Assembly: GCF_035084215.1 (NCBI RefSeq)
Contig: NC_090366.1
Location: forward strand, 10,230,001 to 10,294,000
Direction: 5' to 3'
Length of the DNA stretch: 64,000 bases
From: Heptranchias perlo
Lineage: Eukaryota
Under the pieces are notes generated by a model. The model was given only the letters and a program-made list of their open reading frames with translations. It did no database searches and was not told the DNA's origin. Shown here one piece after another: positions 12,776 through 51,900 of the stretch (positions within the stretch are counted from its first letter, which is position 1; every line of letters starts with the position of its first letter). The position numbers and the translations under genes are program-made.

Positions 12776-13156
12776 TTCTTTGCGGCATTCCATGGTCCGT
12801 GGTGATGCCGCAATTTCTGTCGACTGTGACCGGCTCGTGTGCAATGATTCCTTGTACGGTCAAACATCCAGTTTACGACAGAAGCCCAATAGCGATGTGG
12901 TTAATGGAGGATCCTCATCTAAGTATCTCTGAGTTCTCTATTCTCTACAATTCGGGAGATCCAGTTGGGAGCCACTCTAACTACAGTGGGAGAGTTGAAT
13001 TTATGGGCAACCTCAGTAATAAACAATGTTCCTTACTGATAAAGGATATCAGAAAGAGTGACGAGGGTGTACATTACTTCAGGGTAAACGTGTCGTTTCC
13101 TTGGTTTAATGATACATCTCAGATCTCCGAGTCTAAGATTTCTCTTTCTGTTTTAG
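12776..13156 (+). CDS. Siglec-like copy 1, V-set Ig exon (open, 381 nt)
   Basis: ttctcag| acceptor, |gtaagt donor; WSVVMP...GSCAMIPC...KQCSLLIKDI...DEGVHYFR with the Siglec Cys pattern and Arg codon at 13081-13083. Confidence 0.88.
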
Positions 13157-13354
13157 GTAAGTTTCTTTCCCATTTATTCATGTTTTTATTATTCTAGCTC
13201 TTCAGTGTGAATGCCTCGAGCATGCAAATGAGGTGATGTCCCTCCTTAACTCAAAGGGTAATAGAAACATAGGGTGTAGATGAAAGACGAGATGATTATT
13301 ATCCAATTCTCTGATATATTGTGACTCAAATACCCACTTCCATCCTTAGGTTAG

Positions 13355-17403: not shown

Positions 17404-17701
17404 ATAATCCAGATATCTCAGATTCAGGGGAAATGACTGATGGACAACCAGTCAGATTGACCTGTTCTATTACCTACAGTTGCCTAAATTGCAAACTCCA
17501 ACTGAAGTGGATTGATTACAATGGTTCTTTTCCATTTTGGTGGAATCGCTAAGATAGAAAAGAGACTGTGAATGAACTTCTGAGTTCGTGGGCAGTTTCA
17601 TCCACGTTTACCTGCACATCACGGGAAAACGGTGGGATGCAAATTTATAATCGATGGTGTGAGAACTAATGACCCACAATCTCTTACGCTGGAGGTTTTA
17701 T
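17404..17701 (+). pseudogene. Siglec-like copy 1, disrupted C2-set exon
   Basis: cttacag|DNPDISDSGEMTDGQPVRLTCSITYSC...LKW; in-frame TAA at 17550-17552; 298 nt versus 312 nt in copy 2 (14-nt deletion, frameshift); HGKTVGCK...LTLEVL|gtaagt in the shifted frame. Confidence 0.88.
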
Positions 17702-18099: not shown

Positions 18100-19200
18100 T
18101 TCAGTTTGGGTAAAGGATTGAGATCACAAAATTGCTTCGAACTATGCTCCAATGGGAACAAAATGCTTGTGGGTGAATCCAAATCTAAGGGTCATAAATA
18201 TAAGATAGTCACTAATAAATCCAATAAAGAATTCACAAGAAACTTATTTACCCAGAGAGTGGTGAGAATGTGGAACTCACTACCACATGGAGTAGTTGAG
18301 GCGAATAGTGTAGATGCATTTAAGGGGAAGCTGGATAAACACATGAGGGAGAAAGGAATAGAAGGATATGGTGATAGGGTGAGATGGAGAGAGGGAGGAG
18401 GCTCGTGTGCAGCATAAGCACAAGCATGTACCAGTTGGGCCGAATGGCCTGTTTTTACACTGCAAATTTGACGTGATTATATGTAAATGTTCAAAGACGT
18501 ATTTACGATGTGACTACGTACAGCGTTCACCGCAATTCCATTGGGACGCAAACGCCTTCGCAAATCACTCTGCAGAAATATATTGACCCCGAACATAAAC
18601 GGTTCAGCTCAGATCAGGTTCAATTCCTTCCCTACTGTTTGTTACAGATTGACGCTGGGTATATCGAAGTTGAACTCTAAAAGTGTTTTCTTTTCTTGCG
18701 ATGAAACCAACTGCGATTCACGTACGCTACTGGAAGTTTCTCGAATACTGGAAAATGTGAAGGATGTTTCCAGCGTGGGGACTCGTGAACATGGAACAAT
18801 TAACATAACTGGAAGCGAATACCATGTACACCATTATGGGGGCAGGGTTTGATACAATACCCCTTCCCTCCAAACACTGCAGGAACTCTTGTGAGAATGA
18901 ATATCTATCAGAGAATATTTAATAAATTCACTTCTGTTTGTTGGTATTTTTGAATTGCATTCACAAACTCTTTTCTAGTATTTTACCATTGGTCTCTCCT
19001 TTTCAAATACAGCACAGGATGAGACTTAATCATTGATGCCTTTGTTCTTTTTATTTAAAATATGAAATCAGCTAGTTTCTAAATAATCAATACACCGCTA
19101 CACATTATAAATTCTGCTGGAATTCCCTATGGCTCAGATTGCAGCCTTCGTTTGCTGGCTCGCCTGTTCTGTCAGCCGTGGGCTCTTGCTTGTGAATTAG
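18100..19200 (+). repeat. Segmental duplication block Y, paralogous to ~60040-61200
   Basis: Shared CR1 tail followed by shared unique sequence, e.g. gtgaacatggaacaattaacataactg and atatttaataaattcactt at both sites. Confidence 0.85.
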
Positions 19201-23028: not shown

Positions 23029-24455
23029 TCAATAGTGAGATATTATTATCATGTATTATTTATTGTGTAGATTTATTAATATGGATGTTCTGAGCTCTCA
23101 TTCTGCATTACAGTTTAAACATAGAACTGCAAACAAAACAGCTCCTTTCACGATGCAGCACACGCTATAACCTGATCAAAGGTAAGCGCTTTCTGGTCCT
23201 ATTTTCCACAATGATTCACACCCAAGACCCTCATGGATAGCAGCGAGGTATGGGCTGCAGAAACCGTAACTAATTGGGCTCTAAATAGAACCGAGCTCTT
23301 CACACCTCTGCTCTGGAGGTGCACTGGCACACGGTGTAAATAAACCCACCCCGGTGTAGCCACAATGATTGAGAATAGCAGGTGAGACACTGACTCGTTC
23401 CCAATGTGAGCAGTGGCGAGACACTGAGAGTGCAACATGTGAGCAGTCAGTGTTAAATCCAAACTGAGCTCTTGTACTGATTACACATCATTCCACTTGT
23501 CAGTCTGAGATCAAACTCGGTCTTGTGTGGAGCTTATTTGAGCAGAGAGCATTGCGTCTGCGATTGATCAGATACTACCACAAGAGCTTTTGTTAAACCA
23601 AAGGGGGCCTTGGATCTGAACACTTTTCTCTAAACTAGTCAGTAAAGCAAACTGGTGCCTGGATCTGAAAACACATCCCTAAACTAGTCAGCAAAACTAA
23701 ACAGGGCACCGGAAATGAACACATATCCCTAAACTAGTCAGTAAAACCAAGTTGGGGCGTGGGTCTGAAGGCATATCCCTAAACTAGTCAGTAAAACCCA
23801 AACTGGGCTCTGGTTCTGCGCGCACATCTCTGCTCTTTCTCTTTCGAACTCTCTCTCACCGCCTCAGACATGCTCCATGTCACACACAGTCACTCTCACA
23901 CGCTCGCTCTCTTTTCTGATGGAGGTCTTTAAAATTATGACGGGGTTTGATAGTGTAATTGTAGACAAGATGTTTGTGCCTGCGGAGGTGTCCAAAACGA
24001 AGGGACTTTTTTTTAATCCATTCTTGGGATGTGGGCGTCGCTGGCGAGGCCGGCATTTATTGCCCATCCCTAATTGCCCCTTGAGAAGGTGGTGGTGAGC
24101 CGCTTTCTTGAACCGCTGCAGTCCGTGTGGTGAAGGTTCTCCCACAGTGCTGTTAGGAAGGGAGTTCCAGGATTTTGACCCAGCGACGATGAAGGAACGG
24201 TGATATATTTCCAAGTCAGGGTGGTGTGTGACTTGCAGGGGAACGTGCAGGTATTTTCGACTGTCATAAATATATGATAGATGCTAATAAATCCAATAGT
24301 GAATTCAGGAGGAATCTCTTTATTTAGACAGTCGTTATAATGTGGAACAGGCAGCCACAGAGAGTGGATGAGGAGAATAGCACAGATGCATTTAAGGGGA
24401 AGTTAGATAATTAGTACACGGTCACTCCAGAAAAGGTATCACCCCCTTTTCTGAG
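23005..24455 (+). repeat. Duplication block Z, direct repeat of ~27745-29080
   Basis: Shared aaaccgtaactaattgggctctaaatagaaccgagctcttcacacctctgctctggag, shared 50-bp array and CR1 remnant; ORFs 23199..23462 and 27992..28231 are mutual paralogues. Confidence 0.9.
23590..23830. repeat. ~50-bp minisatellite, about 5 units
   Basis: aaactagtca recurs at 23632, 23681, 23731, 23781. Confidence 0.85.
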
Positions 24456-26269: not shown

Positions 26270-27390
26270 ACACAAAGGACACGTTGTGCAGGTACACAAA
26301 GATCAGATAGTGCAGATGCAAGAAGATCTCGTGGTACAGATCCACAAAGAACACGTGGTACAGATACACAAAGTACACGCCATACAGGTACACAGAGAAC
26401 ACGTGGTACAGATACACAGACAAAACGTGGTGCAGATACAGAAAGAACACGTGGTCCAGATACACTAAGAATACGTGTTACAGATGCACAAATGAAACTT
26501 GGTGCCAATACACAAAGAATTACAACTAGCTATAAAAAGCACACGTGGTACAGATACACAAATAGTTGTAGTGCAGATATACAAAGCACACCTGGGACAG
26601 ATTCGCAAGTACAGATTCTCAAAGAACACGTGCACAGATACACAAAAACACTTAGCACAGATAAACAATGAACACGTGGCACAGATACACAATGAACACG
26701 TGGTACACATACACAATGAACACGTGGTACAGATACACAATGAACACGTGGTAGAGATGCACAATGCTCACATGTCACAGATATGCGCAGAATATTTGGA
26801 GATACACAAAGAACAAGTGGTAATGATAAACAAACACCACGTGGTGCAGATACACAAGGAACACCTGGTACAGATGCGCATAGAACACCTGGCACAGATG
26901 CAAAAAGAACAAGTGATATAAATACATGAAGAACACATGGTCCAGATACACAAATAACGATGTGGTGCAGATACAAAAGGACCGCGTGTTACAGATACGA
27001 AATGAACACGTGGTACAGATACACAAAGTACATTCAGCACAGATACATAAAGAGCACGTGGTTCAGATACATAAATAACATATGGTGCAGATGTATAAAG
27101 AATTGCGGTACAGGTATACCAAGCGCACCTGGTACAGATGTACAAAGACACTCGTGCAGATACACAAAGAACATGTGGTACAGATACATAAAGAACACGT
27201 GGAACAGGTACACAAAGAACACGTGGTACAGATCAACAAAGAACACGTGGTACAGATACATAAAGATAACGTGGTACAGATTCAAGAACAAAACGTGGTA
27301 CAGATACCCAAAATACACATGGATCAGATACGCAAAGAACATGCGGTACAGATACACAAAGAACACGTGCTACAGATACACAAAGGAGTA
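26270..27390. repeat. 24-bp minisatellite (consensus gaacacgtggtacagatacacaaa), about 46 degenerate units
   Basis: Visible periodicity; yields 8-aa repeat ORFs (EHVVQIHK / VYLYHVFF) in several frames. Confidence 0.95.
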
Positions 27391-28249: not shown

Positions 28250-28740
28250 GCCTGAGAACGAACTGGTTCTTGTGTGGAATCTGCATCTGAACACAATCCC
28301 AAAGCTAGTCAGTAAAACCATACTGGGCTCTGGATCTGAACAAACACACCCAAATTAATCAATAAAACCAAACTGGGCCCTGGATCTGTGAACACATCCG
28401 TAGACTAGACAGTTAAACCAAATCGGGCACTGTAGGTGAACCTGCATCCCTAAATTAGTTAGTAAAACCCTACTGGGCCCTGGATCTGAAAACAATCCCA
28501 AATCTAGTCAGTAATACCAAACTAGCCCTCAACCTGAGCACGCATTCCTAAACTGTTCAGGAAGACTAAACTGGTACCTGGATCTGAACCGACATCCCTA
28601 AACTAATCAATAAAACCAATGGCCCTGGATCTGAATACAGATCCATAAACCAGTCAATCAATCCAAACTGTGCCCTGGATCTGAACACACTTTCCTAAAC
28701 TAGCCAGTAAAGCTGAACTGGACATGGATCTGAGCGCGCA
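28250..28740. repeat. ~50-bp minisatellite, about 10 units (expanded paralogue of the 23.6-kb array)
   Basis: Repeating ctggatctgaacaca...taaactagtcagtaaaaccaaactgggcc. Confidence 0.88.
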
Positions 28741-30781: not shown

Positions 30782-30824
30782 ATGAACAGCAGAAATATTA
30801 TTTTCATTCTGGTATTTAGTGAAG
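30782..30824 (+). CDS. Copy 2 exon 1, signal peptide MNSRNIIFILVFSE
   Basis: gtcATG, donor gaag|gtaaaa; continues VVHCS-RW in exon 2. Confidence 0.8.
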
Positions 30825-33800
30825 GTAAAATATTCTTTTGAATATTTCTCTCAAGCGATTTCCATTTTGTGGCAAAATAACAAAGTAATTAGTTATAGAA
30901 ATAATAAATAGCTAGTGATTTGGAAATTCGCGAAGAAGGTTTTTAATGTATATTATATTCGGAACTGAATCCTGTAATTTATTCGGATTATTTAATACTT
31001 AATGTGTGTTTCATTGGGAATCAAAGGACATTTTAATGGAACAGTTCCACTGGGATATTTACGAGTTTAAATGGGTAAGGAGACGCAAATATCGGTGGGT
31101 GTTAAAAGGGTCATTTAATGGTATTTATCTGGAATTGTAGGGAATGTTTTAATTGGAACATTATTGTGGATTTCATTGGGTGTTTAATTTCTATTTTTCA
31201 TCAGTTGTCCATTGTTCACGATGGTCTGTGAACATGCCGTGGTTTGTGTCGGCAGTGAACGGTTCATGTGCAGAGATCCCGTGTACATTTGATTATCCCG
31301 CCTATGGCCGCAGTCCATGGGGTATGTGGTTAAAGGGGGGTTCTGATCCCAGTAGCCGACGTGTCTCAATTGTCTATGATCCCAGAGCTTCAAACAAAAT
31401 AAACGTTAACTATTTGGGACGAACTGAGTTGAACGGCAACTTTGTAAAGAAACAATGTTCCTTACGGATTAAAGATATCAGGAATAGCGATGAAGGTGAA
31501 TATTACTTCAGACTGAAGATCAGCACTGCCCGGAATGTTACAGAACAATACACTTCCATATTGCAGGCCAATATTTCTATTTTAGGCAAGTTTTTTTTCA
31601 TTTGTTTCTTCAGTAGTTAATATTCCGTCTCCTCAGTGCCATGTAATTTAAGCCTAGAATGGAAAGATATCGTGATACTTTTGGCCTACGTCGCACGTTA
31701 TAGCGGCACGGCTTGTCCATTGAATATTACCCAGGTGAGTGTTATGTATTCTCTTGAAGAGATGTATGATACTGGGCTACTCTTCATAACTTACAGAAGC
31801 TCCCCGCGTTATTCGGTTGCTAAGTGCAACCTTAGATGTTGTATTGAACCGTAAACACCGGGGGGTCAAAATTAAATCCATAATTGAAGCGAAAAAGTAA
31901 GTCAAAGTTTTTAATTCTGAAGGAAGGGTAGGTTGGATATGGTCTAAACACGGGAGGGATTTCGAGCGTCAGTCAGGACTATCTTCAACCATCGTTTTGA
32001 GATGTCAGCAACGCAGTGAGTGAGTGGAAGTTAATTGACTGGCCAATAACCTGAATAATTCATGTGATAAAGCACATGTGATCCGATTAGTTCAGTAATT
32101 GTAAGGATTTATTGACTTTAGGCATCTTTCCCTGCAGCTGAGAGCAGGCGGAACAGAACAGAATTCATTTTTAAGGTGATATTTTCTCAGTGTTTGGGTT
32201 GAATCGCCTGGCACATCATTGGCCGTTTTCAAAATTGAAATCCACTATAATTTCCTTCTCCCCTTACAGAAAAACCAAGTATATCAGTCTCTGGGGAATT
32301 AATTGCTGGACAACCAGCGCAACTGACCTGCTCGATCACCCACAGTTGCCCATCCGCTAACCTTGAGCTGAAGTGGACTTATGATCAAGGTTACTTTCCA
32401 TATCTGACAGAGACTAAAACTTCAGAACAAAATGTCAACGGTTTGGATGATTCCCGGAGGGTTTCATCCATTTTCACCTTCGTCCCATCCTCGGATCATC
32501 ATGGGAAAACGCTGGGATGTAAACTTATAGTTGAAGGTGTCGAAGCGACTGTTCAAGAAACTCTTACACTGGCCGTTAAATGTAAATACCCGCTCAATGC
32601 TTGATTCAACCAGTTGGTTGATAAACAGGTTCTAATGTTATTTTTATTCTCAGTGCAGTGAGAGCTCGACTGGATAATAAATTAATCGAATTGTCTATCA
32701 GCTAATTCTTGTCAGTCACTTTACTAAACATTTTTCCCAGAGAATTGGAGTAATATTGGTGGTTCCACGGGTGTGGTTTTTGTACAATATTAATCCAAAG
32801 GATCCCAATGCCTGATGACATTTTAGCCACAGAGTAACTGATTAACATTAAATATAATGTACAGCTCAAAAACAGGCCATTCGGCCCAACGAGCCTGCTC
32901 CCACTTCTCTGCATCCAATCCCATCAACGTGACCTATTCTTTTTACCCTCGTGTGTTTCTCTAGCTTCCCCTTAAATGCATCATACAGACCAGGAGAGTG
33001 TGTTTTGAATTAGCTGGGGCGGTGGGGTCGAGATGCTACACTTGGCCTCAACACCCCTGTGTGAGAGAAGGGAAAGTCGACCAAGTTCTTGTTCTGGGAG
33101 GAATGGTCACTTGGTTGACGTACCGCTGGACTCGAACCTTACCCGGGCAAACAAACAAATCTCTAATGACAAGAGGGGAAACGATGCTTATGTTGGAAAT
33201 GAGCTTAAGGTCTGAGACATCAAAAAACACGAGAGTTGTGTGAACACGGGGGAAATGAGACCCATGCGTAGTCATTGTGGAACGGATCACTGATGTCCCT
33301 TCATACATTTAATAGATTCACACTGTACTTACGTTGTATGAAAATCTGTGTTGAGCTGTTTGCAGTGACCAAGTTATCTCCAGCCATGCGCCAATGTTAC
33401 ATTTATGTTACGTTTGATCTACAACTGAATTAGCAAGATAGTCACCATATCTTACTTAATATTGTTGTTTGGTTGTCACTTAATTTGTTTTTTTTTCTCT
33501 TACGCGCTGGAATTCTCATTTACCGCCAATGGCCTCATCAGTACCAGTTGCCCCGCGGAAACCAACCGTCAATTCCTCTATAGTAGCAGTGGAAGGGAGT
33601 TCAGTATTACTGTACTGCACGGCCCAGGGTAAACTACCGGTCAGTTTAAGATGGGTGAGAGATGGTTCGGAGATCAGCATGTCTTCCACCGGTGAACTGC
33701 GGCAGATATTTCACAACATTAGTTCTAAAGATGACGGACAATATTGGTGCGTGGCTGAAAATATCGTGGGCAAAGCAAACAGCTCCACACAGATTTCTGT

Positions 33801-36800
33801 ACAATGTAAGTGCGGTGTGAAACTACCTTCATTCTCTTTATTATGTTACTTTACTGAAGTTAAGCGCGCTGTTATAAACAATCACCATCAAAACTCGTAG
33901 ACTGGGAGTGGAGTTAATCATTTCCTATTTATCTCATTGATATTTGGAAAGCTAATCTTCCTCACACCAGGTTCCGTTGAGGATCAAACGTAACATAAAT
34001 GTAACAGTGGCGCATGGCTGGAGATAACATGGGGACCGCAAACAGCTCCACACAGGTTTTTGTACAACGTAAGTACAGTGTGAACCTATTAAATGTAAAA
34101 AGGGACATCAATGATCCGTTCCACAGTGACTACGTATGGGTCTCATTTCCCCCGTGTTCACACAACTCTCTCAATAGCCGATGTTAGTAATATTCACAGA
34201 AAATCCAGTAAAAGAAGGAGAATTTGACCACATTTAGCGTGTAAAAAACATCGTTAAAAACCAGAGACGCCAATGCACAAAAGCAGGTAAAATGTATCTA
34301 GACTGGTTAAAACCAAATGAATGAATATGTGAGATGTGAAACGCCAGAATTAATGTGCGGGGGACTGATCCCAGCGATCCTGAACTGGGTAGCTGGTACT
34401 GTTGAGGTCATTGGCGGCCAATGAGAAGTCCAGCGCATAAAGGAGAAAAAACATTTTAAGTGACAACCAAAAACAATATTAAGTAAGATATGGTGACTAT
34501 CTCATCAAATCTAAATTGAAAAGCGAGCTCGTGTTTTTTGATGTCTTAGACCTTAAGCTCATTTCAAACATAAGCTCTCTTGTCATTAAAGATTTGTTTG
34601 TTTGCCCGGGTAATCTTCTAGTCCACCGATACGTCAACCAAGTGACCATTCCTCCCAGAACAAGAACTTGGTCGACGTTCCCCTCCCTCACACAGGGGTG
34701 TTGAGGCCAATTGTAGCATCTCGACCCCACCGCCCACCCACCCCCAGCTAATTCAAAACACACTCTCCTGGTCTGTATGATGCATTTAAGGGGAAGCTAA
34801 AGAAACACACGAGGGTGAAAAGAATAGTTCACAATACCCGACTAACTCACCTCAACTCTCAGTTCTGGTAAAACTGTTCGTATTTAATCGAATAAACTTC
34901 TACCTTTGTGACTGACTAATAAGTTATTCTGACTGGGTAATCGCCCACAGCACGAAGTTAAATGGATCAAATGACCGCTCATTGTTTCAATGTGAACTTA
35001 TAACTGAGTTATTGATTGCTAGAATTTAGCAAAAAGCAAAATCTGATGATGCATTAAACGAATGTATCATTGTATGGCTCCAATTAAACACGGCTGTGCA
35101 GTAACCTCTCTGGTTAGTCTAAAGGTCCAAATGGTTCTACTGAGAAACGACAAACTGCTTGATGAAAGCTAACGGAAGCTGAACTGCTCTTATTTTTTTT
35201 TAGATAAACCTTCAATAGTGTCAGGCCCGAACTGCACCATTTCTGAGAGTGGGATTGATTGTACCTGCAGTGTCAGAGCCAACCCCCCGGCAAACATCAC
35301 ATGGGGTCTCAATGGAAGAAACATCACTAGGTACAGTTCAGATGGTGAAGTTATCTCCTGGGCAGTGACTGGTCACCTGGTGCAGAGCTCCCTGACATTG
35401 ATTCACCCAACTAGAACTGGAAACCAGATCTCATGTGTTGCAGCAAACAAGCACGGCATTAGTGTCGGCAAATATCAACTCCAATTAGCAGGTAAGTCCT
35501 GACATTTCCTGGAATTTAATTACTGGAGCTGGATTTTTCCGTCACTGGCCCGCCACTAAGTGAACGGTGTTAGTGTCAGCAAATACCAGCTCCATTCGCC
35601 AGTTGAATACCAAACCCATCTGCAATTAAGGACAGAATCCATTGGATAATTTAACTAGTCTCCAGGTATGGTCCGCCACTGACCACTCACTCACTAAAAG
35701 TTGCGATCGGAATAATACATTATTTTATTTATTTGTTCATGTGATGTGGGCGTCGCTGGCAATGCCAGCATTTATTGCCTATCTCCAAGGTGGTGGTGAG
35801 CCGCCTTCTTGAACCGCTGCAGTCCGTATGGTGAAGGTTCTCCCACAGTGCTGTTAGGAAGGGAGTTCCAGGATTTTGACCCAGCGACGATGAAGGAACG
35901 GCCGATATATTTCCAAGTCGGGATGGTGTGTGACTTGGAGGGGTGTTGTTCCCATGTGCCTGCTGCTCTTGTCCTTCTAGGTGGTAGAGGTCGCGGGTTT
36001 GGGAGGTGCTGTCGAAGAAGCCTTGGCGAGTTGCTGCAGTGCATCCTGTGGATGGTACACACTGCAGCCACGGTGCGCCGGTGGTGAAGGGAGTGAATGT
36101 TTTGGGTGGTGGATGGGGTGCCAATCAAGCGGGCTGATTTGTCCTGGACGGTGTCGACCTTCTTGAGTGTTGTTGGAGCTGCACTCATCCAGGCAAGTGG
36201 AGAGTATTCCATCATACTCTTGACTTGTACCTTATAGATGTTGGAAAGGTTTTGGGGAGTTAGGAGGTGACTCACTCGCGGCAGAATACCCAGCCTCTGA
36301 CCTGCTCTCGTAGCCACGGTATCTATGTGGCTGGTCCAGTTAAGTTTCTGGTCAATGGTGAGCCCCAGGATGTTGATGGTGGGGGATTCGGCGATGGTAA
36401 TGCTGTTGAATATCAAGGGGAGGTGGTTAGACTCTCTCTTGTTGGAGATGGTCACTGCATGGCACTTGTCTGGCGCGAATGTTACTTGCCACTTGTCAGC
36501 CCAAGCCTGGATGTTGTCCAGATCTTGCTGCAGACGTGTCACTGATTTATCGGATTTGGTTATCGTTGCATTGTTTTCCTCAATATCGGAAGGGATTAAT
36601 ATAAAACAGTATAAGTACCATGCGATCTTGAATAAAACAGAATCTTCTGAATTAACTCGACGCTTTCTGAAGTCAGGTTGTCTCGCACTACAACAGGAGC
36701 GGGCTGCAGTCCATCATTGAATTCACACTTGCTCAGTTCTATCTTGTTCATACATTTCAAATAAACAGCTCTTCCAGCTATTTCAGACTGCTCCTGGGAT

Positions 36801-39800
36801 TGTTTTCCTTGAGATGTTCTGAGAAGACTCTTAATTTGGGTAATGTGGAAAATGGAGTCTGAATACCTGAATACCTGGGATAATTGAAGATTAGAGACTG
36901 AATTCAAATAAGGCTCGCAAGCGAATGAACCATGTTTGTGAGATGAATATTGGCACACATTCGGGATTGGAGACTGAATTCTTTGTTGTGCTTTATTCAG
37001 TCCTCAATAACATCCTTTCAAGGTTGATGTCATCCTGGTAATTTAAATACAGCACCGTGTGAGGGGGGTTCGTTTGTTGCTTCCTGACCCCATGTTGCAT
37101 TTTACCAAATGTCTCAGTTACGTTAAAAAATTCCGACTGTTTTATCGAGGCAGAGGTGTATTCGATGGACTGTCCGTGTACGTTTCTCTTTCCATGATTT
37201 GATATGTACGGAACAGATAGGAATTCAATGTATAAATATTTATTTTAAATTTACACAGGGCATAGAACAAGGGTAAAATGATGGGGGAAATCCAGTGTTA
37301 GTTCGTGGAAAAAGCAATCAGTTCAAATCCTACCCTGTCCATTTTCTGCGAATATTTCCCAATATATTAATGCAGCATATTGATGTTTTTTAGAGAGATT
37401 AGATTAGGGATCATTTTCAAATCGTGCGTCCTTTGATCGCCGGGTCAGAGTTCTGAGGTTTCAGTAAATATATAAAATCTTTGGGTCTGACTTTTAAGAT
37501 GTGAATCTCTAGGAAACTCGCCAATTCAGGCGGATTAACGTTATCCTAATACCATGTTGTAATCGTAGAGCAATAATGAACAACAAAGTTGAGGGGCATA
37601 GATAAGATAGATAGTCAAAATCTTTTCCCAAAGGTAGGGGAGTCTATAACGAGGGGGCATAGATTTAAGGTGAGAGGGGAGAGATAAAAAAGGGTCCAGA
37701 GGGGCAATTTTTTCACTCAAAGGGTGGTGAGTGTCTGGAACGAGCTGCCAGAGGCAGTAGTAGAGGCGGGTACATGGGGAAGATGGGTATAGAGGGATAT
37801 GGGCCAAGTGCAGGCAACTGGGACTAGCTTAGTGGTATAAACTGGGCGACATGGAGATGTTGGGCCGAAGGGCCTGTTTCCATGTTGTAACTTCTATGAT
37901 TCTATGATTCTATAAAGTATTTTTGAATATTTCAGGAACTTTTCCCTGGATAATTGTCATCGCAGCTGAAGCAGCGGCCACTTTGATCATCCTGTTTCTG
38001 ATCGCGGTGATGTTACTGAGGTATGTGTGGTGCACAGTTTACATGAACTCTTGTGTTAATCACAGATCTGAAAGGGGTCCATGGCATCAGGATTTCTGCC
38101 TCTGAGAAACTATTACAGTGAACTGTGTGGAGGATAATAACAGATATCAGGAGGACATGGACAGACACATGACAGATGAAATTGAACGCAGAGAAGTGAT
38201 TCATTTTGGTAGGAAGAATGAGGAGAGGCAATATGAAGTAAATGGTACAATTTTGAAGGGAGTGCTGGAACAGAGAGCCTCGAGGGTGCATGTACACAAA
38301 TCTTTGAAGGTGGCAGGAAAAGTCGAAAAGGTCGTTCAAAAGCATTTGGGATCCTGTGTTTTATAAATAGAGGCATAGAGTGCAAAAGCAAGGAAGTAAT
38401 GCTGAACCTTTATAAATCACTGGTTGGGCCCCAGCTGGAGTATTGGGTCCAATTCTGGGTACCACACTTTAGAAAGGATGTAAAGGTTTTAGAGAGGGTG
38501 CAGAGATTATTTACTAGAATGGTACCAGGGATGAGAGACTTCAGTTACGTGGACAGACTGGAGAAGATGGATTGGTACTCATAGAGCAGAGAAGTTTAAG
38601 AGGAGATTTGATAGACGTGTTCAAAATCATGAACGGTTTTGATAGAGTAAATAAGGAGAAACTGTTTCCAGTGGCAGAAAGGCCGGTAACCAGAGGACAC
38701 AGATTTCAGGTGATTCGCAAAGAACCAGAGGCGACATGAGCAAACATTTTTTTTAAGCAGCGAGTTGTTATGATCTGGAATGCACTTCATGAAAGAGCGG
38801 TAGAAGCAGATTCAATAATAACTTTCAAAAAGGACTTGGATAAATCACTTGACGGACAAACAAATCATTACTATGGGAAAGAGCAGGAGAGTAGGACTAA
38901 TTGGATAGCTCTTTCAAATAACCGGAACAGACGCGTAGGGCCGAATGGCCTCCTTCTGTGCTGTACCATACTATTTTACTATGATGCTATTTCTTCAAAT
39001 ACTTAACCCTTGAAAGCTTTGGCCCTGAAACTCAGCTCAGAGTTGTCTATCGCTTCTCCCAGCTCGAATAACAGACCGGAATAATTCTACTCTAGACTTT
39101 GGCTCAGTCTCCTTCGCTTCTAAGTTTAAAGTTTGTGGTTCCAGCCTCCAAATAAAACATGAGCCCCGCATCGAGCCGGACACACCACTGTAGTGTAGTG
39201 CGGCATTGTGGGAGGTGCCGTCTTTCACATCAGACATTAAACCTAAGCATCGTCTGCATGCTCAAGCGGATGTGAAATATCCCTTGATAATATTGGCGGA
39301 AGAGAAGGGAGTTTCCCCCGTGTCATGGCAAAAATATATCCAGCCAGTCAAGCCAGGAAAACAGATTAACTGTTCACTTGACTCGCGTGGGATCTTCCGA
39401 TTGCTCTTTAGGCAATATGTTAGGCCTATGTTTGCAAATCCGGCCTCATTAATCACACCTCTGCTACTTAATAAGATGTTAATTTGTGAAACAAAGTGTT
39501 AATAAACAATAAAATTACCCCGCTATTTCATATAGTGGGAACACACTTGATAAAAATCCTCTAATTGTTTTTGAAACAAAGTGTTATCTTAGTGTGAGGA
39601 ACTCCTATGACCGTTATTTGAACAGTTGTTCGCAATCTATCTACAAGTGTGATAAAATACTGTGCAGGCTGATCTTTTCTCCAAGTGCAGACTGCACCAA
39701 TTCATTATCCAGCTTCATGGGATAGAGAGAAATCGTCATTCAGAAATATGTAACCGTAAGGATAGAACAGAAACTGGAAGGAAATCATGTCTATGCTAAT

Positions 39801-42800
39801 CAGGAAACGTTATATACACAAATCCTTGATGACGTAGGGCACCAGAAGATTTATTAACCTTAAATATAAGCAGTTATGAGATTTTCATTATTTGTATTGT
39901 TTTGAATCAGGAAGAAGACAAGAGACACCGTTAGTGTCCCCGCAACAAACAACGATTCTGTGACTTACGCTGCGGTGCAGCACCCGTTTAACACTGAGGT
40001 AAGTGAGGAGATGGAAATTGTCCAGCATTCGCTGGAGTTACCTGCCTGATATTTGCTCTGTTTGTAACCAGTGGAAATGACATTCAACACAAAACGCAAC
40101 GGTTTAACGGGTGCTTTAGATACTTGTTTTGACGGAATTTTTACAGGGTGGAAGGGCCACCTCAGCCTACTGACAGGAACTGATGCGCTGGTCATGACCT
40201 GATAAATCGGTCATGGACATTTACAGTATTGGGGATTTTATTGAATTCAAAGTAGGTCGAAGAAAATCGTTTTCTCATATCACTTAAGGAAACAAATCTT
40301 GCACTGCCCTCCCTCATGACATTATGACACTCGGGGGATGGGGTTGGTTCGTGAATCTTTGGAATTCTCTCCCCCAGAGGGCTGTGAATACTCAGTGGTT
40401 GATTATATTCAAGGCTGAGATGGGTAGATTTTTGGACTCTAAGGGAATCATGGGATATGGGGATTGCGGAGGAAAGTTGAGTTCAGGTCGTTGTTCAGCC
40501 ATGAACTTATTGAATGGCAGAACAGGCTCGAGGGGCCCTATGGCCTCCACCTACTGCTATTTCATATGTGCGTTGCTTTAAATTCTCAGCAAGATCACAG
40601 TTTGTGACGGGCCTGAGAAGCGCCAGACCGCATTGCAGTTCTCTTGGATTATCTGCATTTTCCTCCCTGGATTTTACGTCCCAATTTATTCTGGGGTGGG
40701 ATCGGTCCGTGCGAGGGGCCTGGGTGTGCAACATGCTCGCCTGCCGAAAGCCGGATTGATTTTACGCCCGGTCCAAGCCCCGGCATAAATAATTGCCTGG
40801 CCGGCCGGCGCGCCCATATTTTTGTGAAGGAGAAGGCCGCTGCTTGCGACCGCGGGAATAGCCCCCAAAAGTCAGGTAAGGGTTGGAAATGGGGGCGAAG
40901 TTGATCTGGGTAGGGGGAGAGGAGTCCGCGACAAGGCAGCCATAAGGTTGCCTTGTGGCGCCAGAAGCAGTACTCCTGCCGCTCCTGGCTCACAAGGAAA
41001 TCGATATAAGAAATAAAAACTCACTGGGGCTGTTCTGGCCACCATTCAGCTCCCGACACGTCTCCCTCGCTAAGGCTTCGGGCTAAAATGACGCATTGGG
41101 CTCCAATGCCATATATGGAGTCCGATCCGCATATTTATAGAGGGCCCCGCCGTCTTGCGGTGGATGTCCTTGCCCCCTGCAATTTAAAATTGCAGGCGGT
41201 CATATCTGAGCGGGAAAGGGTTAGATAAGTAGCCCGCTCCATTTTAAGTGTCCTACCTCGTATCCGCCAGGCGCACGGAGTTAGATTCAGGGCATTAATA
41301 TTGGTTTGGATGAGTTGGTCGCGCCCACGGTCTGTTTCACAGTGTTGGTGGTTCAAAGCCTACGTCACCCAACGTGGATGCAGGAAGGATGTTTTCCCTT
41401 TCTGGGGGGTCCAGAACGGGGGGGGGGGGGGGGGTCACAGTCTCAGGATACGGGGTAGGACATTTAGGACTGAGATGAGGAGAAATTTCTTCACTCAGAG
41501 GGTGGTGAACCTGTGGAATTCTCTACCACAGAAGGCTGTGGAAGCCAAGTCACTGAATATATTTAAGAAGGGGCTACATAGATTTCTAGACACAAAAGGC
41601 ATCAAGCGGGATGGGGAGAGAGCGGGAATATGGTATTGAGATAAAGGATCAGCCATGATCATATTGAATGGCGGAGCAAGTTCGAAGGACAGAATGGCCT
41701 ACTCCTGCTCCTGTCTTCTAGAATCATAGAAGTTACAACATGGAAACAGGCCCTTCGGCCCAACATGTCCATGTCGCCCAGTTTATACCACTAAGCTAGT
41801 CCCAATTGCCTGCACTTGGCCCATATCCCTCTATACCCATCTTACCCATGTAACTGTCTAAAAGACAAAATTGTACCCGCCTCTACTACTGCCTCTGGCA
41901 GCTTGTTCCAGACACTCACCATCCTTTGAGTGAAAAAATTGCCCCTCTGGACCCTTTTGTATCTCTCCCCTCTCACCTTAAATCTATGCCCCCTCGTTAT
42001 AGACTCCCCTACCTTTGGGAAAAGATTTTGACTATCGACCTTATCTATGCCCCTCATTATTTTATAGACTTCTATAAGATCACCCCTTAACCTCCTACTC
42101 TCCAGGGAAAAAAGTCCCAGTCTGTCTAACCTCTCCCTGTAAGTCAAACCATCAAGTCCCGGTAGCATCCTAGTAAATCTTTTCTGCACTCTTTCTAGTT
42201 TAATAATATCCTTTCTATAATAGGGTGACCAGAACTGTACACAGTACTCCAAGTGTGGCCTCACCAATGCCCTGTACAACTTCAACAAGACATCCCAACT
42301 CCTGCATTCAATGTTCTGACCAATGAAACCAAGCATGCCGAATGCCTTCTTCACCACCCTATCCACCTGTGACTCCACTTTCAAGGAGCTATGAATCTGT
42401 ACTCCTAGATCTCTTTGTTCTATAACTCTCCCCAACGCCCTACCATTAACGGAGTAGGTCCTGGCCCGATTCGATCTACCAAAATGCATCACCTCACATT
42501 TATCTAAATTAAACTCCATCTGCCATTCATCGGCCCACTGGCCCAATTGATCAAGATCCCGTTGCAATCCTAGATAACCTTCTTCACTGTCCACAATGCC
42601 ACCAATCTTGGTGTCATCTGCAAACTTACTAACCATGCCTCCGATATTCTCATCCAAATCATTAATATAAATAACAAATAACAGCGGACCCAGCACCGAT
42701 CCCTGAGGCACACCGCTGGACACAGGCATCCAGTTTGAAAAACAACCCTCTACAACCACCCTCTGTCTTCTATCGTCAAGCCAATTTTGTATCCAATTGG

Positions 42801-43846
42801 CTACCTCACCTTGGATCCCATGAGATTTAACCTTATGTAACAACCTACCATGCGGTACCTTGTCAAATGCTTTGCTGAAGTCCATGTAGACCACGTCTAC
42901 TGCACAGCCCTCATCTATCTTCTTGGTTACCCCTTCAAAAAACTCAATCAAATTCGTGAGACATGATTTTCCTCTCACAAAACCATGCTGACTGTTCCTA
43001 ATTAGTCCCTGCCTCTCCAAATGCCTGTAGATCCTGTCCCTCAGAATACCCTCTAACAATTTACCCACTACAGATGTCAGGCTCACTGGTCTGTAGTTCC
43101 CAGGCTTTTCCCTGCCGCCCTTCTTAAACAAAGGCACAACATTTGCTACCCTCCAATCTTCAGGCACCTCACCTGTAGCGGTGGATGATTCAAATATCTC
43201 TGCTATGTTTCTATGTCACATTTTGAGCCTTCCATCCAGAGTTTGACTCGGATGTAGCACAGAGCAAGTGCTGCATTAAGGGAGGTGCCGTCTTTCAGAT
43301 GACTGCTTAATCCAGGGCCTTGGCTGCCTGTTCCAGTAATCCAGTTGGATGTTAGAAATCTCAATGCAATATTGGAAGAAGAGTCGGGATTTCTCCAAAT
43401 GTAATGGTTAAAATTGGTCGAAACGTCACCAAAATTGATCGCCAGGTCATTCTACTCATTTGCTTTTATTGTGGGCGAATTAGCTGATGTAATTTAAATG
43501 TAATCCATTGGTTACAACATGCTGTAATGAGGTGCTATGTAAACACACGTTACTTATTGTTTTAGAGCTTAAAATGCTTTACTCACTGAGTAGGGACATT
43601 AGACCATACCAGGTAGGGAATAACGCGAGTTATTCTGGTACAGGAAGCGCACTCCCACCTAGCAGCAGTTCCATATCTAATTCCTACTTTCTGTTCCAGA
43701 GCCAAGGCCAGTATGCAAACACTGATGTTCGAGGGGCTGCCTCCAAACAATCAGCAGAAAGAGAAAATGTGCTGTACGCAGCTGTCAAAGTATCAAACGT
43801 TCGCAAACATGAGAAATATCTCCAGAATGAGGAGTCCAGTGAATAG
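30782..43846 (+). CDS. Siglec-like (MAG/CD22/CD33-related) inhibitory receptor, copy 2; 8 exons, 533 aa: join(30782..30824,31205..31585,32270..32581,33548..33805,35204..35491,37936..38020,39911..39998,43700..43846)
   Basis: Exon phases are all compatible (1,1,1,1,1,2,0), total 1602 nt with no internal stop; signal-V-C2-C2-C2-TM-ITIM-ITIM; orthology not assignable from sequence alone. Confidence 0.88.
31205..31585 (+). CDS. Copy 2 exon 2, Siglec V-set domain
   Basis: WSVNMP...GSCAEIPCTFDYP...KQCSLRIKDI...DEGEYYFR...EQYT; Arg codon 31510-31512; donor is GC (ag|gcaagt). Confidence 0.92.
32270..32581 (+). CDS. Copy 2 exon 3, C2-set domain 2 (absent from ORF track)
   Basis: cttacag|EKPSISVSGELIAGQPAQLTCSITHSCPSANLELKW...FTFVPSSDHHGKTLGCKL...LTLAVK|gtaaat; extra Cys (HSCP) for the Siglec interdomain disulfide. 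Confidence 0.92.
32929..34832. repeat. Three pairs of inverted repeats surrounding exon 4
   Basis: 32929-33232 vs 34525-34832; 33231-33420 vs 33982-34170; 33436-33556 vs 34395-34502; ORF 32998..33243(+) matches 34497..34763(-). Confidence 0.9.
33548..33805 (+). CDS. Copy 2 exon 4, C2/I-set domain 3
   Basis: FAPRKPTV...EGSSVLLYCTAQG...LRW...DDGQYWCVAEN...ISVQ|gtaagt; a second in-frame AG lies 6 nt upstream (start 33542). Confidence 0.92.
35204..35491 (+). CDS. Copy 2 exon 5, membrane-proximal Ig domain resembling MAG domain 5
   Basis: tttttag|YKPSIVSGPNCTISESGIDCTCSVRANPPANITW...SSLTL...ISCVAANKHG...|gtaagt; C-x8-CxC pattern. Confidence 0.9.
35725..36535 (-). mobile_element. Second-family LINE 3' fragment in intron 5
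   Basis: ORF 35772..36542 LQQDLDNIQAWADKWQVTF...MEYSPLAW. Confidence 0.9.
37590..37913 (+). mobile_element. Young CR1 3' fragment inserted just upstream of the TM-exon acceptor
   Basis: Target duplication aaagt at 37585-37589 and 37914-37918; near-identical to the 3' end of the CR1 at 41720-43203. Confidence 0.88.
37936..38020 (+). CDS. Copy 2 exon 6, transmembrane segment
   Basis: tttcag|GTFPWIIVIAAEAAATLIILFLIAVMLL(R)|gtatgt. Confidence 0.88.
38118..38980 (+). mobile_element. Degenerate CR1 3' portion in intron 6
   Basis: ORFs 38118..38366, 38399..38584 (LYKSLVGPQLEYWVQFW), 38770..39006. Confidence 0.88.
39911..39998 (+). CDS. Copy 2 exon 7, cytoplasmic, ITIM VTYAAV
   Basis: aatcag|(R)KKTRDTVSVPATNNDSVTYAAVQHPFNTE|gtaagt; phase 2 in, phase 0 out. 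Confidence 0.88.
41720..43203 (-). mobile_element. Young 5'-truncated CR1 LINE with open 441-aa RT ORF, nested in the tail of another CR1 fragment (41385-41720)
   Basis: ORF 41842..43167 with uninterrupted RT motifs ([32 protein letters not shown]). Confidence 0.95.
43700..43846 (+). CDS. Copy 2 exon 8, terminal cytoplasmic exon (QYAN, ITIM VLYAAV)
   Basis: ttccag|SQGQYANTD...ENVLYAAVKV...EESSE* then AAIKLK* in frame to 43867. Confidence 0.88.
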   Translation, partial: SQGQYANTDVRGAASKQSAERENVLYAAVKVSNVRKHEKYLQNEESSE

Positions 43847-44164
43847 GCCGCAATTAAATTGAAATGAAATGCAGCAGGATTTACACCATTCGGAGAGAGG
43901 GAGCTCATTAGCATCTTCACACAATTGGTTTTATGAGCTAGAACAGGAACTTCACATTCCAGGAAGTGCTGTGAGAATGGACATCTTTCAGACATTAATT
44001 GATAACATTTTTAATATCTTTGTGAGAGTATTTGATTTACAATCCAAACACGTCTTTGGTTTCCAAACACACTTGTGAAAAGCAGCGGGAAATGGGCTTT
44101 AATCGTCAATATGAATTGATACCTGTTCATCTGCTCTAGTAAACCAACTATTTTCTTAATTCGA

Positions 44165-46735: not shown

Positions 46736-48264
46736 AAATATTCGTTATAATTATTTCTGCTGGAGACGTTTTCCATCTTGTGGAAAAATAACAAAGTAAT
46801 TAGTTACAGACATGGTATATTGTTAGTTTGTGATTTGTGAATTCATGAAGTGGCTATTTCAGGTATGTTACATTCGAAACTTTAATCTGTATTTTATTCG
46901 GATTTATTGAACACAATGTGTGTTTTATTCGGTATCAATGAGAATTTTAATGGAATTTAAGAAGTTTCAGTGGGGTTTCCACGTGTTTTAATGGTTGGTG
47001 ATGTATTGATTAATGGGTGATTAAAGAGTAATTTAAAAGCATTTAGCTGGATTGTACGGGAATGTTTGAATTGGAACGTTTTTGGGTATTTCAATGGGTG
47101 TTTGATTTCTATTTATCATCAGTTGTCCATAGTTCACCATGGTCTGTGGCGATGCCATGCTTTGTGACGGCAGTGAGCGGTTCAGGTGCAGAGATCCCGT
47201 GTAAATGTGATTATCCCGTCGATGGCCGCAACCCACGGGGTATGTGTTTAAAGCGGGGTTCTGATCCTGGAACCCGAGGAGTCTTTATTGTCTCTGATCC
47301 CAGAGGCCCAGTCAATATACACTTGATCTACAGAGGGCGAGCTGAGTTCACCAGCGACTTCACATAAAAACAATATTTTTTACGGATAAAATACATTGAT
47401 GAAGGTGACTATTAATTCCGACTGAAGAAAACCAATGCCCGGAATATTATAAAAGAACATGCTTCCAGGTCACATGTCAATCTTTCTATTTTAGGTATTT
47501 TTGTTTTCGTTTGTTCCTTTTTTCGTTTATATTCCATCTTCTCAGTACCATTTAACTTAATCCTCGAATGGAAAGATATCGTGATACTCCTAGCCTACGT
47601 CACAAGCTACAGGGAGGCTGCAGGTACATTGAATAATACCGAGGTGCGTGTTACGTTTTGACTTGAACAGAAATAATTGAATTCTCAGCAACTTGCAGAA
47701 GCTCCCTCCATTTTTAATGCCACATCCAGTCGTGAATGGTGGTGGACAATTAAACAACTAACGGGAGGAGGAGGCTCTGCAAACATCCCCATCCTCAGTG
47801 ATGGTGGAGTCCAGCACGTGAGTGCAAAAGACAAGGCTGAAGCGTTTGCATCCATCTTCAGCCAGAAGTGCCGAGTGGATGATCCATCTCGGCCTCCTCC
47901 CGATATCCCCACCATCACGGAAGCCAGTCTTCAGCCAATTCGATTCACTCCACGTGATATCAAGAAACGGATGAGTGCACTGGATACAGCAAAGGCTATG
48001 GGCCCCGACAACAACCCAGCTGTAGTGCTGAAGACTTGTGCTCCAGAACTAGCTGCGCCTCTAGCCAAGCTGTTCCAGTACAGCTACAACACTGGCATCC
48101 ACCCAGCAATGTGGAAAATTGCCCAGGGATGTCCTGTCCACAAAAAGCAGGACAAATCCAATCCGGCCAATTACCGCCCCATCAGTCTACTCTCAATCAT
48201 CAGCAAAGTGATGGAAGGTGTCGTTGACAGTGCTATCAAGCGGCACTTACTCACCAATAACCTG

Positions 48265-48930: not shown

Positions 48931-51900
48931 ACCAATAACCTGCTCACCGATGCTCGGTTCGGGTTCCACCAGGACCACTAGGCTCCAGACCTCATTACAG
49001 CCTTGGTCCAAACATGGGTGAGGTGAGGTGAGAGTGACTGCCCTTGACATCAAGGCAGCATTTGACCGAGTGTGGCACCAAGGAGCCCTAGTAAAATTGA
49101 AGTCAATGCGAATCAGGGGGAAAACTCGCCAGTGGCTGGAGTCATACCTAGCACAAAGGAAGATGGTAGTGGTTGTTGGAGGCCAATCATCTCAGCCCCA
49201 GGGCATCGCTGCAGGAGTTCCTCAGGGCAGTGTCCTTGGCCCAACCATCTTCAGCTGCTTCATCAATGACCTTCCCTCCATCATAAGGTCAGAAATGGTG
49301 ATGTTCGCTGATGATTGCACAGTGTTCAGTTCCATTCACAACCCCTCAAATAATGAAGCAGTCCGAGCCCGCATGCAGCAAGACCTGGACAACATCCACG
49401 CTTGGGCTCATAAGTGGCAAGTAACATTCGCGACAGATAAGTGCCAGGCAATGACCATCTACAACAAGAGAGAGTCTAACCACCTCCCCTTGACATTCAA
49501 CGGCATTACCATCGCCGAATCCCCCACCATCAACATCCTGGGGGTCACCATTGACCGGAAACTTAACTGGACCAGCCATATAAAGACTGTGGCTTCGAGA
49601 GCAGGTCAGAGGCTGGGTATTCTGCGGCGAGTGACTCACCTCCTGACTCCCCAAAGCCTTTCCACCATCTACAAGGCACAAGTCAGGAGTGTGATGGAAT
49701 ACTCTCCACTTGTCTGGATGAGTGCAGCTCCAACAACACTCAAGAAGCTCGACACCATCCAGGACAAAGCAGCCCGCTTGATTGGCACCCCATCCAGCAC
49801 CCTAAACATTCACTCCCTTCACCACCGGCGCACTGTGGCTGCAGTGTGTACCATCCACAGGATGCACTGCAGCAACTCGCCAAGGCTTCTTCGACAGCAC
49901 CTCCCAAACCCGCGACCTCTACCACCTAAAAGGACAAGAGCAGCAGGTACATGGGAACAACACCACCTGCAGGTTCCCCTCCAAGTCACACACCATCCCG
50001 ACTTGGAAATATATCGCCGTTCCTTCATCGTCGCTGGGTCAAAATCCTGGAACTCCCTCCCTAACAGCACTGTGGGAGAACCGTCACCACACGGACTGCA
50101 GCGGTTCAAGAAGGCGGCTCACCACCACCTTCTCAAGGGCAATTAGGGATGGGCAATAAATGCCGGCCTCGCCAGCGACGCCCACATCCCGTGAACGAAT
50201 AAAATAATAAGTGTAATGCTGGACTGTAATGTTTTCAGATTCCCATACATGCTGATAAACGCTATCCTCATACCGTGTTGTAATCTTAGAAGAATAATGA
50301 GCAGCAAGCTTTTTCTTTTGAATATTTTAGGTACATTTTCATTGATAATATCCATGCGAATAAGAGCAGCCGCCGCAGTTATCATTCTGATTGCAGTCGT
50401 TGTCTTGGTGAAGTTTGAGAGGAATCTGCAAAAGTTCGAAAAGCAACTGGATGTGTTCCCTCCAGGCATTCAAACCACAGGTGGGATGTTGGTTAATGTA
50501 CCTCATCGGCATTGTTATCTCCTGGAACTCCTTTTAGTGATCAGAGAGGAATTTAACATATTTTTTTGATGAAGTGGCCTCATGCTTTTTATCTATTTTT
50601 TGCCTCTTCCTGGTGGTGGGAGGGAAGGCGCGTGTCCTGATGCTTTGATGGGTCATGACAGTTTGGGTCATGCTCGATGGACCAGTCGGTCTTTTCCTTC
50701 CCGTCTTTTCGTACGTGTGTAAGTTGTAAAGCTCAAAATGTTCCCCTAACTCAGTAGGAACAATAGATTAGTGCCAGAGGTGGAATTAAGCGGATTATTC
50801 CGGTACTGAAAGCGCACTCTCACCCGGAACAATGACTCCATGTCTAAGGCAGTACGTTATGTTATAGAGCCCAGGCCTTTATATAATCATTGGCCTCTAT
50901 GGTGTGAAGAGGAGTTGTATGCAGTGGGCAACGTTTGAAACTTTCGCAAACTTGAAAGATATCCCCAGACTGAGGAATCCAGTGAATACCCCGCAATTAA
51001 ATTTAAGTGAAAATCGAATGGGATTTACTGCATTTGGACGGATAGATCTGATCAATAACTCAACACATCTGGTTTCATGAGATAGAACAGGGACTTCACA
51101 CTCAGGAAGGGCTGTGAAAATGGACATCTTCCCGAGATTAATTGCGAACATTTTCAATTCTCTTTGTTGGAACATATGATTTATAACCCCACACAGTTTT
51201 CATTTTAACCAACAATCTGAAATGCAGTGAGGTAGACTTTAATGGTCAATATAACTTTTCAATAACTTTATTTTTACTTTAATAAACATAATTAATTTCC
51301 TAAGTAATTTTAACGTTGTTTCCATTTAAGGCTTCCCTCTCTCACCTTGTTATATGGTCCTGTTGCACGGCGTTTAACGTCTCCAAAGGCGGCTCTGTTA
51401 GTTTGGAAGCCTCTCCCATCCAGTGTAACAAATGTTCAGCTCAGTGTCAATTTTCATCAGTTTCATTCACGACGATATCCAGACATTTATAAACATATAG
51501 CTTCATTCAGAAGCAGTTTGCAATGGAAGCGAACTGATTACAAAGGGCGGAGCAGGGAGTTCCATGAATTATTGAAGTATGTATTGGATTCCACTCTTTA
51601 TCAAACTGTACTGAAAATTAATACTTGCTTAAAGATGGTGGGGCCATGGTTAGAAAATGATCATGACGTAACTGATCATTTGTTATTGTTTTGTTATCCA
51701 ATGAACGTGGATTACTTTACTTTACTTAAAGTCAAAATAAGCATCCACCCTTGCACAGACAGGTACAGTAGTCAACAGAAGAAATACGCTCTTGTTAGTT
51801 TGTACAGCAACTGGGTTAGACCCTCCCTTTTAACTCTCTGTGTTAGTGACAGTGTAAATATGGCTGGGGGATTCCATTTGGTCCCTTTGCGGTAGTGACA

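Follow-up and report, generated by a model that had tools for sequence, protein, structure and literature searches.

Introduction

Rearrangements caused by switches of replication template are addressed by the model of fork stalling and template switching and of break-induced replication mediated by microhomology (FoSTeS/MMBIR; PMC2621351), and small inverted duplications bearing microhomology have been described that lead to exon skipping in CHM (PMC8756506) and MANBA (PMC6549551). In mouse Tbxt, a 220-bp self-derived reverse-complement pair lies round exon 6 (PMC10901737), exons with weak acceptors reportedly tend to be skipped by loop-out (PMC13019027), and stronger hairpins can inhibit circular RNAs, a strong hairpin being no guarantee of circle formation (PMC4201285). 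Here, a 64,000-nt stretch of the shark Heptranchias perlo was analyzed (assembly GCF_035084215.1, contig NC_090366.1, positions 10,230,001 to 10,294,000 of the forward strand; hereafter the window, in whose coordinates all positions are given), in which exon 4 of a Siglec-like receptor gene is enclosed by interlocking inverted repeats (arms A, B and C upstream; B', C' and A' downstream) whose inferred order resembles the FoSTeS/MMBIR pattern. We consider it probable that this cage of arms is the scar of replication template switching in a fast-changing shark Siglec-like cluster, and that its dominant stem loops out exon 4 with, at most, partial skipping as a side effect. A rearrangement scar of this type is of a known kind, and a passive side effect on splicing is plausible.

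Results

Inverted arms around exon 4

Exon 4 (33548-33805, + strand) encodes an immunoglobulin (Ig) domain (I-set/Ig_2) and is 258 nt long with phase 1-1, as given in a preliminary description made from the letters alone; a second AG choice refines this to 264 nt when the exon is taken from 33542. Upstream, arm A (32929-33233, +, 305 nt) is original intron 3 sequence and arm C (33436-33553, +, 118 nt) is the original exon 4 acceptor region, with a T-rich tract (~33482-33502) and AGs at 33540 and 33546, the preliminary description having placed the pyrimidine tract and one AG there. Between them lies arm B (33231-33429, -, 199 nt), an inverted copy of B' that shares GAG with A at their junction. 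Downstream of the exon, a spacer without recognisable exon 4 copy (d1, 33826-34002, +) stands between the real exon end and its duplicate. Arm B' (33972-34170, +) holds this decayed exon 4 end (34003-34068), a duplicate donor GT at 34069 and then the ancestral start of intron 4, and is followed by a spacer of intron 4 sequence (y', 34171-34386, +) that is common to a paralog without exon 4 (contig piece 34059-34388). Arm C' (34387-34502, -) is the inverted match to C, arm A' (34528-34832, -) is the inverted match to A and ends inside a repeat fragment, and the 25 nt between them (x', 34503-34527, -) would, from comparison of the junctions, be the A-to-C linker that B replaced upstream. The fragment in question (32847-32990, unstranded) is a high-copy interspersed repeat that runs unbroken across the start of A, reaches a depth of 3e5 in DNA run X2 and aligns with a copy at 18290-18470; we take it to be short interspersed nuclear element (SINE)-like.

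The antisense order previously proposed for the six arms is upheld at these coordinates, with 88-91% identity and E values from 3e-120 to 1e-36. A and A' are 89.2% identical with gaps (E 3e-120) and 94.6% over aligned bases, interrupted by two indels, B and B' 91.0% (E 3e-77) and C and C' 88.1% (E 1e-36); the top inverted pair scored 421 bits, compared to a maximum of 45.5 over 100 shuffles. The last 66 nt of exon 4 together with 20 nt of intron (86 nt) have a sense copy of 80% identity at 34003-34088 and an antisense copy of 79% at 33313-33398, confirming that B' and B carry degenerate copies of the exon's 3' end and donor. Inverted pairs of at least 100 nt were found in 8/47 overlapping 2.6-kb tiles of the window, two of the eight being the exon 4 locus itself and the other six containing pairs of 68-86% identity, mostly between sequences repeated elsewhere in the window. 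Intronic double-strand potential is common in the window, and the exon 4 arms are its most alike set.

Proposed origin of the arms

Arm A starts inside a repeat fragment that continues upstream, and A' stops at that same point; because A' is cut off within a repeat that runs on upstream of A, A' is the copy. The downstream order is A', 25-nt linker and C', and upstream the A-to-C gap is occupied by B. At the junctions, GAG is shared at A/B, a 6-nt filler and AGAT present in both donors lie at B/C, and a short run of G is shared at y'/C'. These microhomologies of 2-4 nt are clear at A/B and plausible at B/C and y'/C', and are so short that chance also gives such matches. Since the linker is retained on the A' side, and given the GAG and filler/AGAT junctions, B would be an inserted inverted copy of B'. 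Consistent with this direction, B and B' share 11 changes relative to the exon while the other pairings share 4 and 3, so B was derived from B' and not from the exon. A contig from a distant shark (organism C) runs from the exon 4 donor directly into the tail of B' (joint 33813>34083), which makes the doubled exon end the derived state. The possibility that d1 and B' together represent a complete decayed exon 4 was rejected, as only the last 20 codons align and d1 scored 78 against a shuffle mean of 76.

From these comparisons we infer an order of steps in which the end of exon 4 and its donor would have been duplicated downstream by a direct duplication (20% diverged, the oldest step), the end of intron 3 (A, linker and C) would then have been copied in inverted orientation into intron 4, and an inverted copy of B' would finally have entered intron 3 in place of the linker. 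The second and third steps (5-10% diverged) may have been a single event with four switches, and in both cases the A' side would carry the linker and no B. Divergences of 5.4% (A), 9.0% (B) and 10.3% (C) do not differ significantly (p 0.14) and are compatible with one event or two. Two features expected of template switching were found, namely discontinuous duplicated segments in both orientations and low-copy repeats nearby (paralog pieces at 12793, 17406 and 47125). The fallback offered in the preliminary description, a complex template-switch scar, is thus the reading favored by the truncated repeat tail, the junction microhomologies and the simpler layout of the relative.

Predicted folding of the pre-mRNA

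The arms follow each other in the order B<C<B'<C', so the B:B' and C:C' helices cross, and with A:A' closed the 25-nt linker is too short to span the 199-bp B:B' helix, meaning that the three helices can never all form fully. The competition between B:B' and C:C' described earlier is therefore real, and a third pairing absent from that description was identified, in which B pairs with the real exon 4 end and donor using bases that overlap those of B:B'. When the transcript ends at the donor, the predicted fold has B joined to the exon 4 end by 67 pairs, with the donor covered; as soon as B' is present, B:B' (187 pairs) displaces this pairing, and the addition of C' brings no change. The full region is predicted to form A:A' (280 pairs) and B:B' (187 pairs) at -1041 kcal/mol, and when B' is blocked C:C' (103 pairs) buries the T-rich tract and both AGs at -877 kcal/mol. 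Duplex energies for the contest between B:B' and C:C' are -328 and -172, respectively.

The Dscam docking/selector system is the type of splice switch built on competing RNA structures. At the shark locus, mutual exclusivity was found both sterically (B:B' against C:C') and through shared bases (B:B' against B:donor), but the alternatives are not of comparable stability. A balanced switch is unlikely because the gap of ~164 kcal/mol favors A:A' with B:B' and because B' is transcribed before C'. Of the earlier proposal that pairing could switch between receptors with four and three Ig domains, the competition stood and the switch itself is weakened, the folds being far from balanced and the stronger one able to form first. 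In the scheme we favor, B would cover the real donor briefly and then pair with B', A:A' would lengthen the stem and C:C' would be mostly shut out, leaving exon 4 in a stem loop from which some in-frame skipping or circles may arise as a side effect. The skipped form would be a receptor with three Ig domains, a form that paralogs reach through deletion of the exon from DNA. Complementary arms in both flanking introns and a stable predicted stem, the traits of loop-out exons, are present, and passive loop-out skipping or back-splicing is plausible by precedent, self-derived reverse-complement arms having such an effect at mouse Tbxt (PMC10901737).

RNA evidence

Four sequencing runs were treated as RNA, since their joints at the ends of exons read GT..AG and bins of single-copy intron had zero depth. 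The last exon was covered by RNA contigs with 0 differences in 3/4 runs (2 differences in the fourth), one contig beginning at the exon boundary, which indicates that the host gene or an identical copy is transcribed. The junction proposed earlier as the sign of skipping, 32581>35204, is present in RNA (GT..AG, depth 96.7), but it comes from a paralog that lacks exon 4. The exon 3 of this contig differs from that of the host gene at 23/314 nt, and its residue changes match the first unit of public protein P0001, which is without the exon 4 domain, at 8/8 positions and the second unit at 6/8 (17/23 differences listed); skipping of exon 4 by the host gene was ruled out as its source. Because the paralog has no exon 4, this check is a trap and will yield false positives if reads are not first assigned to the gene. 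Joints including exon 4 (depth 696) lie on a contig matching P0002, and depth in run X5 at the listed variant sites of exons 3 and 4 carries paralog letters throughout. No back-splice 33805>33548 was seen among the 15/161 and 15/45 joints listed, which is not evidence of its absence as contigs drop rare forms. Changes counted in X5 (A>G 21, T>C 26, C>T 19, G>A 21) are paralog differences and uninformative on editing. A public protein with the host exon 3 and without exon 4 was found neither among 3 matches nor in the one-member cluster of P0006, in what was a weak search.

Paralogs and the exon 4 acceptor

Parts of the cage recur elsewhere. A contig of DNA run X2 (48 differences and 35 gap letters, ~11% diverged) bridges A/B, B/C and C/exon 4 (33146-33596), and another from the same run covers 33815-34005 with 19 differences, so that by sequence the cage is at least partly common to a second gene copy. 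A contig from organism B crosses A/B by 16 letters, below the 31-letter rule, and hints that the arms may also occur in another species. Joints of paralogs free of exon 4 were seen at 32850>34059 (X5, with indels also in X2) and 32741>34084 (X2), the source being either DNA or unspliced RNA. A joint to the opposite strand at 34840/34925, just outside A', is present on two X2 DNA contigs and suggests that a paralog or allele carries a further small inversion. Paralog loci are known here from contig pieces. The locus rearranges often. The exon 4 domain was present in 13/24 and absent from 11/24 shark and ray gene units, a count that rests on predicted models, some of them partial; the units comprise 22 proteins, two of them fusions, and exclude seven teleost matches and two P0002 isoforms. 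In H. perlo alone, it was present in 5 and absent in 2. Exon 4 (33548-33805) is 98% identical to that of P0002 (6/248 nt in RNA), compared to 69% for the V domain and 51% for exon 3, and it is possible that it was recently transferred or converted between paralogs.

The two AGs of exon 4 (33540-41 and 33546-47) lie 6 nt apart and both preserve the frame. Public model P0006 takes the first (264 nt) and six relatives the 258-nt position, which ruled out the upstream AG as the ancestral acceptor. In P0002 and P0004, exon 4 begins 24 nt further upstream, where the host gene has AC, with phase 1-1 kept. The family thus uses three acceptor positions within 33524-33547 (0, -6 and -24 nt), and in the highly expressed paralog, where CAC stands in place of the usual AG, splicing takes place 24 nt further upstream and the domain gains 8 residues. 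With its T-rich tract 37-43 nt from the AGs, the exon 4 acceptor of the host gene looks weak.

The host gene and its surroundings

By its exon and domain order, the host reads as a Siglec-like V-C2-C2-C2-transmembrane gene of H. perlo. Eight exons on the + strand join into an open frame of 533 residues with a leader, a V-set domain, three more Ig domains, a transmembrane segment and two motifs resembling the immunoreceptor tyrosine-based inhibitory motif (ITIM); after in silico removal of exon 4 the frame stays open, giving 447 residues plus stop instead of 533 plus stop. Exon 1 (30782-30824; 43 nt, phase 1, GT donor) encodes the leader peptide and exon 2 (31205-31585) the V-set domain, with V-set and Ig_CD22 matches. 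Domain matches identify a C2-set domain in exon 3 (32270-32581) and a C2-type Ig domain in exon 5 (35204-35491), and matches to the public model place the transmembrane segment in exon 6 (37936-38020) and the cytoplasmic VTYAAV motif, which is ITIM-like, in exon 7 (39911-39998). The coding part of exon 8 (43700-43846) holds VLYAAV and ends in the stop TAG at 43844. P0006 (H. perlo, 'MAG-like', XP_067831291.1) matches the Ig exons of the host gene at 100%.

The V domain (31207-31584) has its closest match in sialoadhesin and retains the aligned arginine (YYFR versus YNFR in sialoadhesin), which corresponds to the F-strand arginine of Siglecs. At 43844-43870, TAG stands where P0001 has the tyrosine of EYAAIKFK, and motif remnants continue into the 3' untranslated region; because TAG replaces this tyrosine, the last tyrosine motif of the host gene has been lost. 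RNA contigs cover the site with 0 differences. At 31586 the donor of the V exon is GC (AG/GCAAGT), whereas the paralog at 47494 has GT, and this GC donor is probably why P0006 keeps just 29 V-domain residues. Further pieces of the same family lie in the window, namely a V exon (12793-13161), a frameshifted exon 3 (17406-17697), a V exon with stops (47125-47493) and a last-exon remnant (50906-51014). A 24-nt tandem array of 46 copies (26270-27385) is flanked by two 50-nt arrays of one family (23594-23818 and 28281-28733).

Discussion

A template-switch scar with passive loop-out has to be weighed against readings in which the arms are maintained for a function. A selected RNA switch, in which B:B' (acceptor free) alternates with C:C' (acceptor buried) and sets the ratio of four-Ig to three-Ig receptors, would gain from the crossing helices that cannot all form fully, from the burial of the T-rich tract and both AGs by C:C' when B' is blocked, from in-frame skipping of an exon with a weak-looking acceptor (such acceptors reportedly being prone to loop-out; PMC13019027) and from the upstream layout common to a second copy. 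We nevertheless judge it quite improbable, given the ~164 kcal/mol gap with B' made before C', a skip junction that belongs to a paralog, and arm differences without G-U bias (13 of the G-U-tolerated and 11 of the A-C type, p 0.84), which give no sign of selection on sense-strand pairing in a comparison of low power with 24 informative changes. Alternatively, B might owe its retention to B:B' concealing the duplicate donor at 34069, since splicing there would lead to an in-frame stop; the stem would then protect normal splicing rather than cause skipping. The duplicate donor (AAC/GTAAGTAC) is as consensus-like as the real one (AAT/GTAAGTGC), a frame read on beyond the real donor runs into a stop at residue 363, and B:B' pairs 187/199 bases; yet, with 20% divergence against 9%, the duplicate donor has twice the age of B, so the gene went long without B, and B forms 67 pairs with the real donor as well, which makes such masking very unlikely.

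Recombination between A and A' that flips the exon 4 cassette in DNA and creates on and off alleles, as had also been suggested, is an equally slim prospect. The arms extend over 305 nt (94.6% over aligned bases), A is less diverged than the co-copied C (Fisher p 0.08, a weak hint of arm-to-arm exchange) and an opposite-strand joint adjoins A' in another copy, but neither a gene nor a signal for a site-specific recombinase is evident, a flip yields no new Ig exon (stops after 10-47 codons) and would only lose exon 4, the 34840/34925 joint lies outside the arms and two indels interrupt A/A'. No arm-to-arm flip joint was found among the 15/45 joints listed, where contigs break at the repeat in A. 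That outer arms of ~300 nt enclose a cassette could recall the terminal repeats of a DNA transposon with a captured exon. This reading is largely refuted and scarcely probable, since the arms, apart from the repeat fragment, have a low copy number (a summed contig depth of 20-50, where the repeat reaches 3e5), consist of host intron and splice-site sequence, begin inside another repeat and have no flanking duplication. An assembly artefact might be feared in a cluster of near-identical paralogs where no listed contig spans the whole cage, and is barely credible with arms that differ by 5-10% with indels and a diverged second copy that bridges A/B, B/C and C/exon 4; a contig also crosses y'/C' with 0 differences, though over ~20 letters only and maybe from the source sample.

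Several observations weigh against the template-switch scar and its passive loop-out. No microhomology was found where A' meets the downstream sequence, a junction without a known ancestral flank, and the A-B-C-exon 4 layout has outlived a gene duplication and may not be neutral. The folds are equilibrium predictions over 2 kb that leave out bound proteins and co-transcriptional splicing, and the informative arm changes are few. The host gene's own exon 3 or 4 alleles are on none of the RNA contigs listed, so that neither inclusion nor skipping is visible there, and the sole public model, P0006, includes exon 4, albeit with a mis-modelled V exon and doubtful RNA support. Overall, a template-switch scar remains our preferred explanation. 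As such, the locus preserves in legible form a series of small template switches within an immune cluster of cartilaginous fish that has repeatedly lost one Ig domain (11/24 gene units). If skipping is true, it would also be a natural, old, non-transposon case of loop-out, a mechanism that the TBXT paper suggests looking for (PMC10901737), here with both splice sites copied in antisense. A bolder idea, that a self-built RNA cage of inverted splice-site pieces toggles exon 4 to give long and short receptors, with the order of folding (B on the donor, then B', then C') tying their ratio to transcription speed, seems to us improbable. In titles and the starts of abstracts, the listed literature on shark Siglecs, on Siglec conversion or shuffling and on antisense splice-site copies contained nothing on the locus, subscription journals being mostly uncovered.

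Compared to known systems, the host gene shares with the Siglec family (sialoadhesin, MAG and CD33-related members) an N-terminal V-set domain with the aligned F-strand arginine, C2-type domains, a transmembrane segment and ITIM-like tyrosine motifs, and differs in its place in a shark-specific cluster whose paralogs vary in C2 domain number and in the stop that replaces its last tyrosine motif. As in circular RNAs formed via inverted repeats (Sry and ZKSCAN1; PMC4201285), the predicted stem brings the acceptor and donor of one exon near each other, the shark loop being 542 nt. With exon 6 of TBXT, the reverse-complement alleles made in mouse (PMC10901737) and inverted Alu pairs (PMC13019027), the locus has in common complementary arms in both flanking introns and an in-frame skippable exon in the loop; its arms, in which both splice sites are also copied in antisense, are self-derived rather than paired transposons, and its skipping is a prediction. 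The CHM exon 12 (PMC8756506) and MANBA exons 8-10 (PMC6549551) alleles resemble it in their local inverted self-copies, filler, predicted pre-mRNA hairpin over the exon and, as far as such short matches can show, junction microhomology. In these disease alleles, each of them single, recent and perfectly matched, whole exons are copied, whereas the shark locus has two reciprocal copies, each flanking intron containing an inverted piece of the other, that are 5-10% diverged, at least partly common to a second gene copy and arranged with the exon body in the loop, from which in-frame skipping is predicted.

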